A stretch of DNA of 64,000 nt, taken from assembly GCA_031272275.1 (NCBI GenBank), contig JAISUC010000012.1:2052-66051 (forward strand). The letters are read 5' to 3'. The translations under genes and the position numbers were made by a program. The notes below the pieces were generated by a model. It searched no databases. It had not been told where the DNA came from and saw only the letters and a list, made by a program, of their open reading frames with translations. Source of the stretch: Actinomycetes bacterium. Lineage in GTDB: Bacteria; Actinomycetota; Coriobacteriia; WRKU01; WQUG01. Below, one piece after another: positions 6,847 to 10,650 of this stretch (its first letter is position 1; each line of letters opens with the position of its first letter).

Positions 6847-7305
6847 TTACTCCATCAAGTCCACCTGCCAATTCAGTGCCTGCAGGCGTTTATCCAGTTC
6901 CCGATACGCGGCCGCAGCCGCGTCTTTTCGCGCCTGAATATCTGCGATATCCACCGTCACAACATACTTGATTTCCGTGCGCATGTAACGCATGCCGGTT
7001 TCCAGGGTACGTCCCAGCAGCGTGGACATCAGCTGTGTAATCCGGTGTTGGTGTTTGCGTTCCGCCAACAAGTCGTTTATCGTCGCGCCTTCATCGTCAA
7101 TGACCCGGGCATTCGTTTTGTTGATGCGCACAATCAGGTCGCGCACCTCCGTCTTTTTCTGCAGGGACGCCTCTAACAGTTCCACCGGATCCTGTGCGGG
7201 CTCGTCTCCTTCCTGTACTTTCACCACACGCATCAGCCTGTTCTCCAAATCTTCAATGTCCTTGTTCATTTCAGCGCGTGCCATCAGTGCCTCTGCCAGT
7301 TTCAT
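6847..7305 (-). CDS. Small all-alpha protein, tentatively DIP1984/septicolysin-like family
   Basis: 152 aa beginning MKLAEALMARAEMNKDIEDLENRL and predicted helical throughout. Family assignment is from memory only. Confidence 0.4.
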   Translation of the reverse strand: MKLAEALMARAEMNKDIEDLENRLMRVVKVQEGDEPAQDPVELLEASLQKKTEVRDLIVRINKTNARVIDDEGATINDLLAERKHQHRITQLMSTLLGRTLETGMRYMRTEIKYVVTVDIADIQARKDAAAAAYRELDKRLQALNWQVDLME

Positions 7306-7432
7306 TTGCGTGCTCCCTTCGTCGTTTTATCTGCGTGACAGTATCGCACCCGGCTCGGACATTGACATAAGCGCCCATCTGTTCGCCATGGATTGTTCCC
7401 TACGAAGCTTGACAGCTACACGGTTGATCGTC

Positions 7433-7447
7433 GGGACGCACTCCCCC
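7433..7447 (+). repeat. Family 1 15-mer GGGACGCACTCCCCC followed by GTGTTTTC
   Basis: About 155 bp upstream of the AAA+ gene start. Same extended form as the copy at 25118. Confidence 0.7.
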
Positions 7448-7588
7448 GTGTTTTCCGTATTTCAATGCTGCATCATCTGTTCGCATGTATGAACAGCTGA
7501 AATGTCCGACCCGTTTGGGACAATGCCCTCACACGACAAATGGAAGACGACAGACCGCTGAGGTCGAGACTTGAGAGGGTGGTGACTT

Positions 7589-9769
7589 GTGCGATTTTAC
7601 GGGACAACCGCATATCTGCAACTGCCGGATGGAGTGAGCGCGGACGAAGTGGAGGAATCGGTGGTCACGGCATTCCGTGATTCTGTGAGAAGTGCGGCCA
7701 GTGGGGTAACGGATAATTTCTGGTTGGCGAACGACAAGACCTTTCATGTGGCGTTGGGGGCTGCGGCAAAGAGTTGTCCGAGCAAGTACGCAGGCAGGTT
7801 TGTGACAAGCCAACAGATTACCACAGAGGAAAAGTCACGGACTAAAAAGCAGGGTCCATCAATAGGTGTGTGCATGTGGGATAAGCAGGGATTGCCGTAC
7901 GAAGAGGTGTGCTGTTTGCTGCAGGAATTCCTGGAGGAATTCAATGATCCGATGCGCTTTGATCCCCCCGAGGAAATAACGGTTCGAGAATGGAGATCAT
8001 CCTTACGTCGGGCAGACAGGATGCAATTTATCGAAGACGAGTACGAATTGCTTACGGAGCTGGGGTTGGTCGGTCGACACGAAAGGGTTATCCAGTCGAT
8101 CAGCGAGGGCATTATACGCAAGGTGCGCAATAAAAAGGAGCTGTCCCGGTGCGGGGAGGACCTGCTGTGCGGTGAAGACCTGCAGGATGAGTTGGATCGT
8201 GTGTTCCAAGGAGCGGCGACGAAGAATACGGCACGTGTTCAGAGCTTCGGGCATCCGGTGCACTATATGGTGTGCAGTGATGATACTGAGTCAAGGGCAC
8301 AGATACTCAAGATTTTGATGGAGGCGCTGTACCAGAACGGACGAATACAAAGCGCACGGTACCTGAAGATGGACATCGACAAAGAAACTCTATCGAGGGC
8401 GGTGTCGGTTAGCAGCAGAAATGCCAAAGACGATATCGAGGAAGCGCTCGAGCTGGTTTTCAGTATGGCGCAGGGAGGGGTTTTGGCACTGAGGGTCGGC
8501 GAGGACTGTTTTAGGGAGTCGGAGTATGCGTATTTCGGGGCAGGTGTTTTGCCGGTGATATGTCGCTTGATGCGCAAATACCGCCATAAGGTACTGACTA
8601 TAGTACTGATGCCGAACATACACGAAAATATCCGGTCGCTGTTTTTTGAGCAGCTGGGGGCGCTGACTGTCGTGCCGATTCACCAAGTGGGGGTAGGTGT
8701 CGACAGGGCACGCGCGTTTCTGCGCAGACGTGCGCGCGAATTGGACATAGTGCCGAATCGGGCGCTGTACAGGGGCTTGATTGAGGGTCACACGTATAAT
8801 GCGAAAGAGCTGACCGGGCTGTTCGACGAGTGGTATGACAAACGACTGAAAAACGACGTGTTCACCCAGTACGCCGAAGTGTTGCCGGCGCAGAAAAAGT
8901 TGATCAAGCGCGACGCCAAGGGAAATGCTTTCGAAGAGCTGCAGCGCTTGATCGGTTTGTGCGAGGCAAAAGAAACTATTCGTCAAATACTGGATTTTCA
9001 CACGGCGCAGAAACTGTTTCGCGAAAAGGGTTTTGCGGGCGAGCGCCCCGCGATGCATATGGTGTTCACGGGAAATCCCGGTACCGCCAAAACCACGGTT
9101 GCGCGACTGGTTGCGCGTGCCATGAAGGACAACGGCTTGTTGGACGAGGGCAAACTGCATGAAGTGGGGAGGGGGGACTTGGTGGGAAAGTATGTCGGTC
9201 ACACCGCACCGTTGGTCCAGCAGCATTTCAAGGTGGCGAAGGGATCGGTACTGTTTATCGATGAGGCCTACTCGCTGGTTGATGACCGCGATGGAATGTA
9301 TGGAGATGAAGCAATCAACACCATCGTCCAGGAAATGGAGAATCACCGCGAAGATACGGTGGTCATTTTTGCCGGCTATCCGGATAAGATGCAGGGCTTT
9401 TTGGATAAGAACCCGGGCTTGCGTTCGCGGATAGCCTTTCACGTGCACTTTGATGATTACGACGAAAACGAGCTGTACCAAATACTGGAACTGATGGTTA
9501 CGGACCGCAAACAGTGTCTGGGGGAGGGTGTACGCGAGCACGTGCTGCCCCTGTTGGCGCAAGCTCGCGTGGCACCCGGTTTTGGCAACGGTCGCTTTGT
9601 GCGCAATCTGGTGGAGCAAGCGACCTTGCGTCAGTCGACCAGACTGCTCGCACGAAATGCCGAGGATATTTTGCCGCAAGATGTGTTGACACTGTTGCCG
9701 GATGACTTCCGGTTGCCCGCCGAACTACGCAAGAACACGGCAGCCGCCGGTCTGGGGTTCGTGCGATGA
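7589..9769 (+). CDS. CbxX/CfxQ (SpoVK/EccA-like) family AAA+ ATPase with a roughly 450-aa uncharacterised N-terminal region containing a degenerate AAA-like module
   Basis: C-terminal MHMVFTGNPGTAKTTVARL Walker A, VLFIDEAYSL Walker B, CbxX-type helper region. GTG start with GAGAGGGTGG RBS. No recognisable family for the N-terminus. Confidence 0.8.
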   Translation: MRFYGTTAYLQLPDGVSADEVEESVVTAFRDSVRSAASGVTDNFWLANDKTFHVALGAAAKSCPSKYAGRFVTSQQITTEEKSRTKKQGPSIGVCMWDKQGLPYEEVCCLLQEFLEEFNDPMRFDPPEEITVREWRSSLRRADRMQFIEDEYELLTELGLVGRHERVIQSISEGIIRKVRNKKELSRCGEDLLCGEDLQDELDRVFQGAATKNTARVQSFGHPVHYMVCSDDTESRAQILKILMEALYQNGRIQSARYLKMDIDKETLSRAVSVSSRNAKDDIEEALELVFSMAQGGVLALRVGEDCFRESEYAYFGAGVLPVICRLMRKYRHKVLTIVLMPNIHENIRSLFFEQLGALTVVPIHQVGVGVDRARAFLRRRARELDIVPNRALYRGLIEGHTYNAKELTGLFDEWYDKRLKNDVFTQYAEVLPAQKKLIKRDAKGNAFEELQRLIGLCEAKETIRQILDFHTAQKLFREKGFAGERPAMHMVFTGNPGTAKTTVARLVARAMKDNGLLDEGKLHEVGRGDLVGKYVGHTAPLVQQHFKVAKGSVLFIDEAYSLVDDRDGMYGDEAINTIVQEMENHREDTVVIFAGYPDKMQGFLDKNPGLRSRIAFHVHFDDYDENELYQILELMVTDRKQCLGEGVREHVLPLLAQARVAPGFGNGRFVRNLVEQATLRQSTRLLARNAEDILPQDVLTLLPDDFRLPAELRKNTAAAGLGFVR

Positions 9770-9788
9770 AGGCGCGACCCGGCCCGGC

Positions 9789-9800
9789 GGGACGCACTCC
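9789..9800 (+). repeat. Degenerate family 1 copy (GGGACGCACTCC-TC) directly after the AAA+ stop
   Basis: 12 of 15 positions match. Confidence 0.4.
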
Positions 9801-9814
9801 TCAAAGGTATGTCC

Positions 9815-9870
9815 GTTAAGGTAATGCTAAGAGCGCCTTAAGTGGTCGCTAAGATCCCCTTAAGGTTCCC
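9815..9870. promoter_or_regulatory. Five phased CTTAAG/CTAAG motifs (about 11-12 bp period) in the AT-rich region upstream of higB; candidate antitoxin operator
   Basis: TTAAGG, CTAAG, CTTAAG, CTAAG, CTTAAGG read directly. CTTAAG is a palindrome. Confidence 0.35.
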
Positions 9871-10009
9871 CGTGTAAATTGCTCTTCCACGGAAATTGTG
9901 ACCACTCGAAATGACGGGTGACGAGACGGGAGAGTGATGCTATGCCGGAAATGCAGGAAATGCTCGGCGTTATCGAGTTGCAATCTGATAGCGTATCGGA
10001 TATCATATT

Positions 10010-10372
10010 ATGAGGAAGCTGAGTTTCGATTGGGTGAAACGAACGGATGGGGCCAGCGAGTTCATGGACTTTATGGATGGATTGCCGGTTAAGGATCGGG
10101 CAAAGCTCGCTGCACTGATCACTGCTGTTGAGGAGCACGGCTTGGAGATAGCCAAACGAATGAAGTGGGTGAAGAAACTGGGAGATGGCTTCTTCGAAAT
10201 ACGATCGCGGCAGGCAAGTGATATACAACGAGTGATATATTTTCATGGCTCAGGTAAACAGTGCATTATTACCCACGGTTTCACCAAAAAGAGCGATGTA
10301 ATACCGAAAACGCAGATCGAACGTGCAAAGAACCTTCGTGCAAAATGGCTGGAAGAAAGGGGGCAGAGGTGA
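10010..10372 (+). CDS. higB: HigB-like toxin (phage Gp49/RelE-ParE superfamily)
   Basis: ...YFHGSGKQCIITHGFTKKSDVIPKTQIERAKNL matches the Gp49-like HigB C-terminal pattern. Followed by an overlapping XRE antitoxin gene. Confidence 0.75.
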   Translation: MRKLSFDWVKRTDGASEFMDFMDGLPVKDRAKLAALITAVEEHGLEIAKRMKWVKKLGDGFFEIRSRQASDIQRVIYFHGSGKQCIITHGFTKKSDVIPKTQIERAKNLRAKWLEERGQR

Positions 10373-10650
10373 GTGCGATAAAGGAAATGGTTGAGCAGCA
10401 ATGTGCATCAAGCCCGGAGTTTGCGACTGAGTATCAGCGTGAACGGGAAAGATTGGATGCGGCGGTCGCGTTGATGGAGCTGCGGCGCGAAGAGGGAATG
10501 ACACAACGTCAGTTGGCGGCAGCAACCGGAAAGACGCAGGCGACGATAGCCCGTATCGAAAACGGGAGTATGAACCCCTCGGTTAAGCTGTTGAAAGAAA
10601 TCGCTGTTGCTCTGGACCGCCGTCTGGAGTTTCGGTTCGTGAAGAGCTGA
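10369..10650 (+). CDS. higA: HigA-like XRE-family HTH antitoxin
   Basis: GTG start overlaps the higB stop (GTGA). The protein has an XRE-type HTH (MTQRQLAAATGKTQATIARIENG). Confidence 0.7.
   Translation: MSAIKEMVEQQCASSPEFATEYQRERERLDAAVALMELRREEGMTQRQLAAATGKTQATIARIENGSMNPSVKLLKEIAVALDRRLEFRFVKS

Follow-up and report, generated by a model that had tools for sequence, protein, structure and literature searches.

Which function is served by a protein that ends in an AAA+ domain of the CbbX, SpoVK and EccA type and is encoded away from Rubisco, type VII secretion system (T7SS) and sporulation genes? The question is raised by a gene at 7589-9769 of a 64-kb stretch of DNA from an Actinomycetes metagenome-assembled genome (MAG); the whole stretch is called the window here and all positions refer to it. 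AAA* is used as shorthand for the tandem AAA+ protein of this gene and for its family. In an initial annotation the protein had been taken for an uncharacterised two-module AAA+ ATPase that could form a stress or defence module with a DIP1984-like protein and a HigBA pair. The features described there were all found at their coordinates between 6847 and 10650. Gene calls for this region, made on an identical Logan contig, gave four genes, namely a DIP1984/DUF6847 gene, a 726-aa open reading frame (ORF), a Gp49/HigB-like toxin gene and an XRE-HTH antitoxin gene. The analysis makes it probable that AAA* is an uncharacterised tandem AAA+ family of fixed architecture, with a dead first module (D1) and a CbbX-type second module (D2), that it is carried as cargo of mobile elements and defence islands, and that a role in conflict is the likeliest one.

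The gene is longer than its public record implies. NCBI record MDR1775439.1 ('Actinomycetes bacterium', from the same MAG) gives it 582 aa, which is too short, because three lines of evidence favour a GTG located 144 codons upstream: a Shine-Dalgarno (SD)-like sequence precedes this codon, the N-terminus MRFY lines up with the conserved MxFY start of the homologues, and the first 60 residues are modelled by AlphaFold2 (AF2) with a predicted local distance difference test score (pLDDT) of 85-96. The correct length is 726 aa, with GTG as the start. The features of the gene and of its product are the following:

7573-7579, forward strand: SD-like GAGAGGG, 9 nt before the GTG start, read from the sequence
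7589-9769, forward strand: AAA* gene, 726 aa, comprising N-domain, linker, pseudo-AAA D1, active-looking CbbX-type D2 and [IL]GF tail (ORF, homologues, AF2)
7589-7963, forward strand: N-terminal alpha/beta domain (N-domain), residues 1-125, beta-alpha-beta-beta-alpha-beta order (DSSP on AF2 models)
7964-8161, forward strand: helical linker, residues 126-191 (AF2 secondary structure)
8162-8920, forward strand: D1, degenerate AAA+ module, residues 192-444 (Foldseek, hhalign against D2)
8921-9718, forward strand: D2, active-looking AAA+ module of the CbbX/SpoVK/EccA clade, residues 445-710 (alignment to CbbX, NCBIfam)
9071-9094, forward strand: Walker A GNPGTAKT, residues 495-502, family-invariant except K501 (at least 90%)
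9188-9205, forward strand: pore-loop-1 KYVGHT, residues 534-539, aligning with QYIGHT of CbbX
9248-9271, forward strand: Walker B VLFIDEAY, residues 554-561 (alignments)
9719-9766, forward strand: flexible C-terminal tail, residues 711-726, ending in GLGFVR (low pLDDT)

Residues 1-445 gave no match in Pfam, NCBIfam, PHROGs or PADLOC. The full-length AF2 model, built from a 92-sequence alignment, reached a pLDDT of 88, and residues 1-445 modelled alone reached 83. The N-domain was modelled with pLDDT >90 except for an insert (about residues 61-88) that is disordered and lineage-specific, and its order of strands and helices suggests a ferredoxin-like fold. In the linker, E129 is invariant and T131 nearly so across the family alignment. 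A Foldseek search with the full model returned CbbX as the best match, followed by the two-ring proteins AFG2/DRG1, Cdc48, Rix7, ClpC and ClpA over about 600 columns. This remote-homology search revealed an AAA+ fold in the N-terminal half, and no TPR domain of the EccA kind.

A second AAA+ module was also evident from the profiles. By hhalign, residues 192-444 aligned in register with residues 445-712 (E 4e-4); SDDTESR coincides with the P-loop, LALRVGED with Walker B and VLTIVL with the strand of sensor-1. The Walker A position of D1 is thus occupied by SDDTESR (CSDDTESR for GxxxxGK[ST]) and the Walker B position by LALRVGED, where VGED stands in place of hhhhDE and is not conserved across the family. 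Neither Walker A nor Walker B, nor any other nucleotide-binding motif, was found in D1 by sequence or in the D1/D2 alignment. The residues that the family does keep invariant in this module are GHPVHY, R252, R257, W415 and QY427-428. D1 is predicted to be a pseudo-ATPase, a catalytically dead AAA+ module, and was probably derived by duplication. With two consecutive modules, each made of an alpha/beta subdomain and a helical lid, AAA* has the architecture of a type II tandem AAA+ protein. The two-module composition and the degenerate AAA-like fold suspected in the first ~450 residues were supported by structure search, profile alignment and AF2 modelling, with no family match for that half.

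In the case of D2, residues 447-709 matched PF00004 and AAA_lid_6 of Pfam as well as CbbX in the PDB (3.5e-58), in line with the CbxX/SpoVK/EccA-type domain proposed at the outset. The module could be aligned over its whole length with residues 18-282 of CbbX (E 5.6e-59, 38% identity), and every motif is in place, the tyrosine of the pore loop included. Behind it, the tail carries a short motif: [ILVM]-G-[FY] occurs within the last 12 residues of 228 of the 234 full-length family members (97%), mostly as IGF followed by 0-3 residues.

The family is large. A total of 687 relatives aligned with the full-length query, almost all of them 660-700 aa long; the N-terminal halves were about 29% identical and the C-terminal halves about 60%. 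The profile of residues 1-445 retrieved 932 clusters at 50% identity with E <=1e-3, 742 with E <=1e-10 and 424 with E <=1e-30. The architecture is regarded as fixed, because nearly all of the best 150 clusters listed are of ~670 aa. At least 582 GTDB species genomes carry AAA* (locus search with full-length alignment). The hosts belong chiefly to Clostridia of human and animal guts (Oscillospiraceae, Acutalibacteraceae, Lachnospiraceae and others), and small numbers are Bacteroidota, Treponema, Negativicutes or Erysipelotrichales. The top matches to the window protein came from Bacillota, Bacteroidota and Treponema at 44-50% identity, the window host being an Actinomycetes MAG. No relative above ~50% identity was present in any collection searched, and a metagenome scan for close relatives gave none above ~47%. 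No published description of the family was found in a literature search.

The location of the window copy was then compared with that of its relatives. The genes at 1989-10650 have a GC content at third codon positions (GC3) of 0.55-0.67, versus 0.70-0.84 for core genes elsewhere in the window. This AAA* copy lies in a ~9-kb low-GC3 island next to tRNA-Ser, which supports the island that the initial annotation had listed as putative. Its borders are the following:

1834-1926, forward strand: tRNA-Ser(GCT), left border of the low-GC3 island (RNA scan, GC3)
10804-11024, forward strand: cobalamin riboswitch leading a core transporter operon, right border of the island (Rfam RF00174, 115 bits)

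The right border was searched for an att-type copy of the 3' end of tRNA-Ser, with no match, and no integrase ORF was seen. In plasmid and viral collections the family is rare or absent: there were no matches in 72,556 plasmids, two weak fragments in phage records and a relative on 7 of 2.9 million viral contigs of IMG/VR. On these counts a phage or plasmid origin was dropped. Neighbourhoods of AAA* are highly variable between loci. The spread over taxa at 44-50% identity, the island with its GC3 and tRNA-Ser border, and the variable neighbourhoods together point to AAA* being cargo that spreads horizontally with the defence islands and integrative elements of gut bacteria.

In order to identify recurrent partners, 80 genome loci (78 analysed for adjacency) and 87 metagenome or viral loci were sampled, 167 in all and about 175 with added loci. 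Crude gene calls of the 80 genome loci were clustered, and hidden Markov models (HMMs) of the resulting families were run over the ~175 loci. The most frequent neighbour was a WYL-WCX transcription factor, present in 74 of 175 loci; it was immediately adjacent to AAA* and co-oriented in 15 of 78 genome loci, with gaps of -14 to 321 nt. A family of ~273 aa, unk273, occurred in 43 of 175 loci and, in 13 of 78, was the next gene downstream of AAA* in the same orientation (gaps -50 to 62 nt). No Pfam, PHROG or PDB match was obtained for unk273 (for example L019:9837-10664); its N-terminus looks like an SMC/ABC-type strand-loop-helix in which the P-loop is replaced by APDTES. A VWA/DUF2201 'metallopeptidase' gene was found in 41 of 175 loci, a MoxR-type AAA gene in 35 and a gene for a ~1,050-aa SNF2-type helicase in 34, often arrayed as SNF2-MoxR-VWA-AAA*-unk273. 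DUF2779 was encoded in 31 loci, a soluble FtsH-like AAA-M41 protein in 16 and a ClpP-like protein in 10. One or more of these neighbours were present in 36 of the 40 genome loci whose sequence spans 15 kb or more. In an uncultured Firmicutes bin (L016), a single array contains two AAA* paralogues of 670 and 671 aa, separated by ~4 kb, along with FtsH-like, unk273 and ClpP-like genes.

A more specific association was observed among the nearest relatives, for which AAA* copies were ranked by identity to the window protein. Ten of them have a downstream flank of 3 kb or more, and in six of these (L004, L169, L172, L173, L174 and L175) the AAA*, WYL and DUF2779 genes are co-directional, the AAA*-WYL gap being 21-74 nt and the WYL-DUF2779 gap 25-35 nt; in L089, DUF2779 lies 732 nt downstream of AAA*. 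According to Pfam, these cassettes are surrounded by GmrSD (two copies), a 1,720-aa DEAD/YjiV_N/MZB helicase, UvrD, an AEP-TOTE/SNF2/PLD protein, AAA_21, SLFN/AlbA_2, ParE toxin-antitoxin (TA) pairs and TnpV. The AAA*-WYL-DUF2779 cassettes of the nearest relatives sit in defence islands. The neighbourhood comparison that the initial annotation had proposed thus led to WYL, DUF2779, unk273 and the SNF2-MoxR-VWA block as recurrent partners instead of DIP1984 and HigBA.

One of these partners is encoded in the window, 1.07 kb from the AAA* start and divergent from it:

5007-6515, reverse strand: DUF2779 protein, Cas4-like PD-(D/E)xK nuclease and RNase-H-like DUF2779 domain (Pfam 1.8e-45 and a weak Cas4 match)

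The protein is not truncated, and its Cys and EVK motifs are intact. DUF2779 proteins are predicted double nucleases, Cas4-like and RNase-H-like, and are functionally uncharacterised (PMC13621843). PADLOC returned no system match for it, nor for DIP1984.

A conflict-cassette role is considered the likeliest for AAA* because the family resides in defence islands and mobile elements, has WYL beside it and forms AAA*-WYL-DUF2779 in the nearest subclade; that AAA* is a defence component is plausible. In such a defence-type cassette, AAA* would form a double-ring hexamer with the dead D1 ring as scaffold, like the weak or inactive rings of NSF and Pex1/Pex6. D2 would use ATP to draw a segment of a specific client protein through the pore, and the N-domain would choose that client. 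Such narrow-client remodelling would match CbbX with Rubisco, SpoVK with MurG and EccA with T7SS substrates. WYL would control AAA* expression in most hosts, the regulator having presumably been lost in this genome. In its most specific form, this hypothesis takes the co-encoded DUF2779 nuclease as the client. If AAA* does belong to defence or counter-defence, activase-type protein remodelling would be extended to bacterial immunity, and part of the large DUF2779 (solo-Cas4) family would gain a function.

Several observations weigh against this interpretation. No recurrent neighbour was found in 16 of the 78 genome loci, and some AAA* copies are solo among housekeeping genes, for instance in L170. 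PADLOC-DB 2.0 assigned AAA* to no known defence system, giving only IetA (31.9 bits) and TRIP13 (14 bits) on the AAA core. The Walker A motif of D2 has Ala for the canonical Gly before Lys (GNPGTAKT), a replacement that MCM proteins tolerate. For AAA*, the hexameric state, the hydrolysis of ATP and the client are all inferred. The window itself has no WYL gene and, of all the recurrent partners, keeps DUF2779 only. The DUF2779 gene in it is closest to actinobacterial genes (56-61% identity; Coriobacteriia, Propionibacteriaceae), and these closest relatives had no AAA* neighbour in 4 of 4 contexts sampled. For this reason the juxtaposition in the window may reflect island co-residence, with two defence-island genes that happen to be neighbours, just as well as a leftover of the cassette. 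Since AAA* was found in 0 of 4 contexts when approached from the DUF2779 side, DUF2779 is not claimed as an obligate partner. Those four contexts have a defence or mobile-element character of their own, with a SNF2...DUF2201 array, BrxL-like and AAA_15 genes, HipBA and ParE TA pairs, TIR and a Y1 transposase. The array (L176/L177:54-9545) consists of co-directional genes for an SNF2-type helicase, 246-aa and 441-aa proteins, DUF2201 (VWA), a 315-aa protein and, last, a DUF2779 closely related to that of the window; it resembles the SNF2-MoxR-VWA block seen beside AAA*, without AAA*.

The same evidence bears on a narrower proposal, which we regard as possible and on balance doubtful, that AAA*, a WYL sensor-regulator and DUF2779 form a three-gene defence system in which the ATPase remodels or activates the nuclease or strips inhibitors from it, the window holding a rearranged remnant. 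The six short-gapped cassettes, the L089 arrangement, the 31 loci with DUF2779 and the intact Cys and EVK motifs of the window protein agree with it. The cbbX gene is found in Rubisco operons and eccA in ESX loci, which also counts in its favour. Moreover, the characterised clade members CbbX, SpoVK and EccA each remodel one dedicated client, as described by Delerue et al. (2024, PMC11513918). Against the proposal, the DUF2779 family is much larger than AAA* (>5,689 clusters at E <=1e-20) and its members nearest to the window protein occur without AAA*, 144 of 175 AAA* loci have no DUF2779 within their flanks, the window has no WYL, and the AAA*-DUF2779 link is one of gene context.

Alternatively, AAA* could be an establishment or anti-defence factor of mobile elements, that is, cargo of integrative or conjugative elements that remodels host proteins, e.g. 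defence proteins, for the benefit of the element. This agrees with the co-directional array of SNF2 helicase, MoxR, VWA/DUF2201, AAA*, unk273 and, variably, soluble FtsH-like and ClpP-like genes in ~17 of 78 genome and ~17 of 80 metagenome loci, and with the TnpV, serine recombinase, ParB and reverse-transcriptase genes among the neighbours. However, the flanks showed neither type IV secretion system (T4SS) nor relaxase genes, plasmid and viral collections are nearly or entirely devoid of AAA* (0 of 72,556 and 7 of 2.9 million), and the nearest relatives sit in classical defence islands. This alternative is considered unlikely.

An extended form of the nuclease proposal is also rather improbable. 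It states that AAA*-WYL-DUF2779 is an undescribed three-gene immune cassette of gut bacteria in which a CbbX-like ATPase, threading tails and carrying a dead scaffold ring, works as an activase that switches on, or relieves the inhibition of, the Cas4-like nuclease, the near-universal [IL]GF tail perhaps docking onto ClpP or another ring. The IGF loops of ClpX and HbYX tails are known docking motifs. The speculative idea that the AAA* tail docks in this way comes from their likeness to it and from the ClpP-like genes located 2-3 genes downstream in a minority of loci. If it holds, AAA* would be the first peptidase-coupled member of the SpoVK-EccA clade.

The module of the initial annotation, a single stress or defence unit made up of AAA*, the divergent DIP1984 gene and the HigBA pair downstream, was evaluated in the same loci. 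The genes concerned are:

6847-7305, reverse strand: DIP1984/DUF6847 gene, divergent from AAA* (Pfam 3.8e-40, NCBIfam NF038048)
10010-10372, forward strand: HigB-like toxin gene of the Gp49/RelE superfamily (PF05973, 4.3e-19, 68.8 bits)
10369-10650, forward strand: XRE-HTH antitoxin gene, 93 aa (HTH_3, 2.3e-16, 60 bits)

Their identities are as first described. The DIP1984 protein scored 143.9 bits on NF038048 (cut-off 70) and 137.6 bits on PF20935 (cut-off 27) over residues 2-150, and the genes at 10010-10650 show the HigBA-type order of a type II TA pair, the toxin first and then the HTH antitoxin with a 4-nt overlap. Their partnership with AAA*, by comparison, is not conserved. In tblastn searches of the 167 loci, the window DIP1984 and HigB gave no match, and HigA gave a single weak generic-HTH match (L059, E 3e-4) that is not beside AAA*. 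When the DIP1984 family HMM was run over every ORF of the ~175 loci, one canonical member besides that of the window was detected, in L169 of Lachnospiraceae bacterium PFB1-21. There (L169:10001-16098), AAA*, WYL, DUF2779 and a 209-aa gene follow one another, and then a canonical DIP1984 gene lies on the opposite strand, just past DUF2779 and 3.6 kb from AAA*. It is the only other locus with the trio of the window, and its proteins are 38% (DIP1984), 52.5% (DUF2779) and 44% (AAA*) identical to those of the window.

A further family of 169-190 aa, c21, appears to be a distant relative of DIP1984/DUF6847: NF038048 was the sub-threshold top match in four of five members (E 1.5e-5 to 1.3e-3) and hhalign gave E 0.005. 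It occurs in 9 of the 167 loci in variable positions and orientations (for example L019:14194-14700, L009:6191-6691, L034, L071, L156 and L163), a pattern more in keeping with shared cargo than with an obligate pair. DIP1984 itself is a family of very wide occurrence (Chloroflexota, Acidobacteriota, Paenibacillus and even Malassezia), and its distribution is unrelated to that of AAA*. In favour of a joint unit are the contiguity of the genes on one island, the L169 locus, c21, and ParE-type TA pairs near AAA* in L173 and L175. The TA pairs are generic island residents, and since a canonical DIP1984 is found in only one of the ~175 loci and a HigB-like toxin in none of 167, AAA*-DIP1984-HigBA is not a conserved module. 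We judge such a unit very improbable and largely refuted by this lack of conservation; DIP1984 and HigBA appear to be island co-residents of AAA* and not its functional partners. From the initial proposal a defence role is retained as plausible, given the defence-island and mobile contexts of the relatives, while the DIP1984/HigBA partnership finds no support. Of the two results named there as able to overturn it, the missing conservation of the AAA*-DIP1984 pair was obtained, and the N-terminal region turned out to have a known fold, AAA+, and not a characterised domain family. In terms of annotation, the gain is a corrected gene start (726 versus 582 aa) and an apparent module that is explained by island co-residence.

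The initial annotation had also noted a repeated 15-mer upstream of and immediately after the AAA* gene. Both copies are present:

7432-7446, forward strand: 15-mer copy CGGGACGCACTCCCC in the divergent intergenic region (sequence)
9788-9802, forward strand: second 15-mer copy, with one mismatch, 19 nt after the AAA* stop (sequence)

They are not specific to this gene. The 15-mer CGGGACG[CT]ACTCCCC has 17 copies in the 64 kb versus 0.27 expected, inside and outside the island and mostly intergenic (for example at 4956, 7432, 9788, 10748, 17407, 25119, 50807 and 62134). An element bracketing AAA* was rejected on these numbers; the 15-mer is a genome-wide dispersed element and not part of the anatomy of the gene. 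It is often located 75-370 nt upstream of a co-oriented gene, and the copy at 10748-10762 is followed closely, on its 3' side, by a promoter-like TTGAAA-17-TACAGT and the B12 riboswitch. The 15-mer may act close to promoters or bind a regulator. Rfam contained no match to the intergenic regions flanking AAA*, and a promoter and terminator scan of 6500-11200 performed no better than on shuffled sequence.

Other genes of the island were observed as well. A RhuM-family protein at 3901-4794 on the reverse strand is a full-length match to the PADLOC phage-defence candidate PDC-S05 (E 3.9e-117). At 2801-3802, on the same strand, a VG15-like (phage) region is fused to an ADP-ribosyltransferase exoenzyme domain, with flanking 27-nt inverted repeats at 2017-2043 and 3751-3777.

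That AAA* is an orthologue of SpoVK (MurG activator), CbbX (Rubisco activase) or EccA (T7SS) is scarcely credible, since the similarity of D2 to CbbX and its NCBIfam scores of 250.1 bits for SpoVK (TIGR02881), 246.0 for CbbX (TIGR02880) and 197 for EccA (TIGR03922) are set against curated cut-offs far above them (422.95, 459.25 and 466.65 bits), ~445 extra residues with no TPR, no Rubisco, T7SS or sporulation context, and hosts that include non-sporulating Actinomycetes, Bacteroidota and Treponema, so that orthology was rejected on scores and architecture and is refuted at the level of membership. To that extent the earlier view of a protein unrelated to sporulation or Rubisco holds. CbbX (3SYL/3ZUH) is a single ~300-aa module encoded with Rubisco and has no C-terminal extension, whereas AAA* has 726 aa in two modules, adding the [IL]GF tail and ~445 N-terminal residues that include the dead AAA+ ring. 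Its hosts, gut anaerobes and an Actinomycetes MAG, also differ from the CbbX setting. No Rubisco genes were found near AAA* in the window or the ~175 related loci, and no T7SS genes were seen near it. SpoVK has a short N-domain of three strands and one helix and is limited to sporulating Bacillota, in contrast to the 445-aa N-terminal region of AAA*. EccA has an N-terminal TPR domain and an ESX/T7SS locus; AAA* has an alpha/beta domain and an AAA+ fold instead.

At the level of the clade the resemblance is close. The signatures that mark the SpoVK-EccA-like clade are a GY sensor-1, an Asn placed four residues ahead of the first Arg finger, a sensor-2 Arg and, preceding Walker A, a bihelical hairpin (Delerue et al. 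2024, PMC11513918), and all those listed there are present in D2. Sensor-1 reads VVIFAGYPD, with G596 and Y597 invariant in 92 sequences; the Arg fingers lie in N608-P-G-L-R612-S-R614, aligned with NPGFRSR of CbbX; the sensor-2 segment is GNGR669FVR672N with both Arg invariant; and the AF2 model shows a bihelical hairpin (helices 446-453 and 458-479) before the strand 490-495. The variable, substrate-recruiting N-terminal regions described for the clade are a theme into which AAA* fits. The regions named in the available text of PMC11513918 are TPR, beta-helix, beta-prism and a superfamily 1 (SF1) helicase domain, with no degenerate AAA+ ring among them. According to the same text, members of the clade are not associated with peptidases, whereas ClpP-like and soluble FtsH-like genes adjoin AAA* in some loci. 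AAA* would thus stand as a widespread fourth architecture beside the three dedicated chaperones CbbX, SpoVK and EccA, with its pseudo-ATPase ring, a new N-domain that matches no sequence family and a conserved tail of the docking type.

Like the type II unfoldases, AAA* has two stacked AAA+ modules per subunit, one ring probably serving assembly. One weakly active or inactive ring is known among them from D2 of NSF, D1 of p97 and D1 of Pex1/Pex6. AAA* differs in showing no membership of these families at the sequence level, in having a D2 of the CbbX/SpoVK clade and in a D1 that has lost the P-loop entirely, beyond the weakened hydrolysis of those rings. In its gene context AAA* recalls the WYL-regulated defence operons BrxR-BREX and CapW-CBASS (PMC9122588), where a WYL-WCX factor is likewise located beside the effectors. 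Unlike in those operons, the effectors, AAA* alone or together with DUF2779, have no characterised function, and no WYL gene accompanies the copy in the window.

The nearest parallel was found in the Type III-A CoCoNuT extensions, which carry SpoVK-family tandem ATPases between the VWA genes of McrBC-like operons (Bell et al. 2024, PMC11090510). As in AAA*, only the C-terminal module of these ATPases keeps Walker A and B, the context is defence and VWA genes are near, VWA-DUF2201 being frequently upstream of AAA*. Compared by description, the CoCoNuT ATPases have C-terminal leucine-rich repeats (LRR) and a beta-barrel, while AAA* has only its 16-residue tail and an N-domain of its own. No CnuB/CnuC (McrBC-like) partner was present in the window or in the recurrent AAA* neighbour clusters. 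With these differences, the SpoVK-family tandem ATPases of CoCoNuT are the closest architectural precedent for AAA*.

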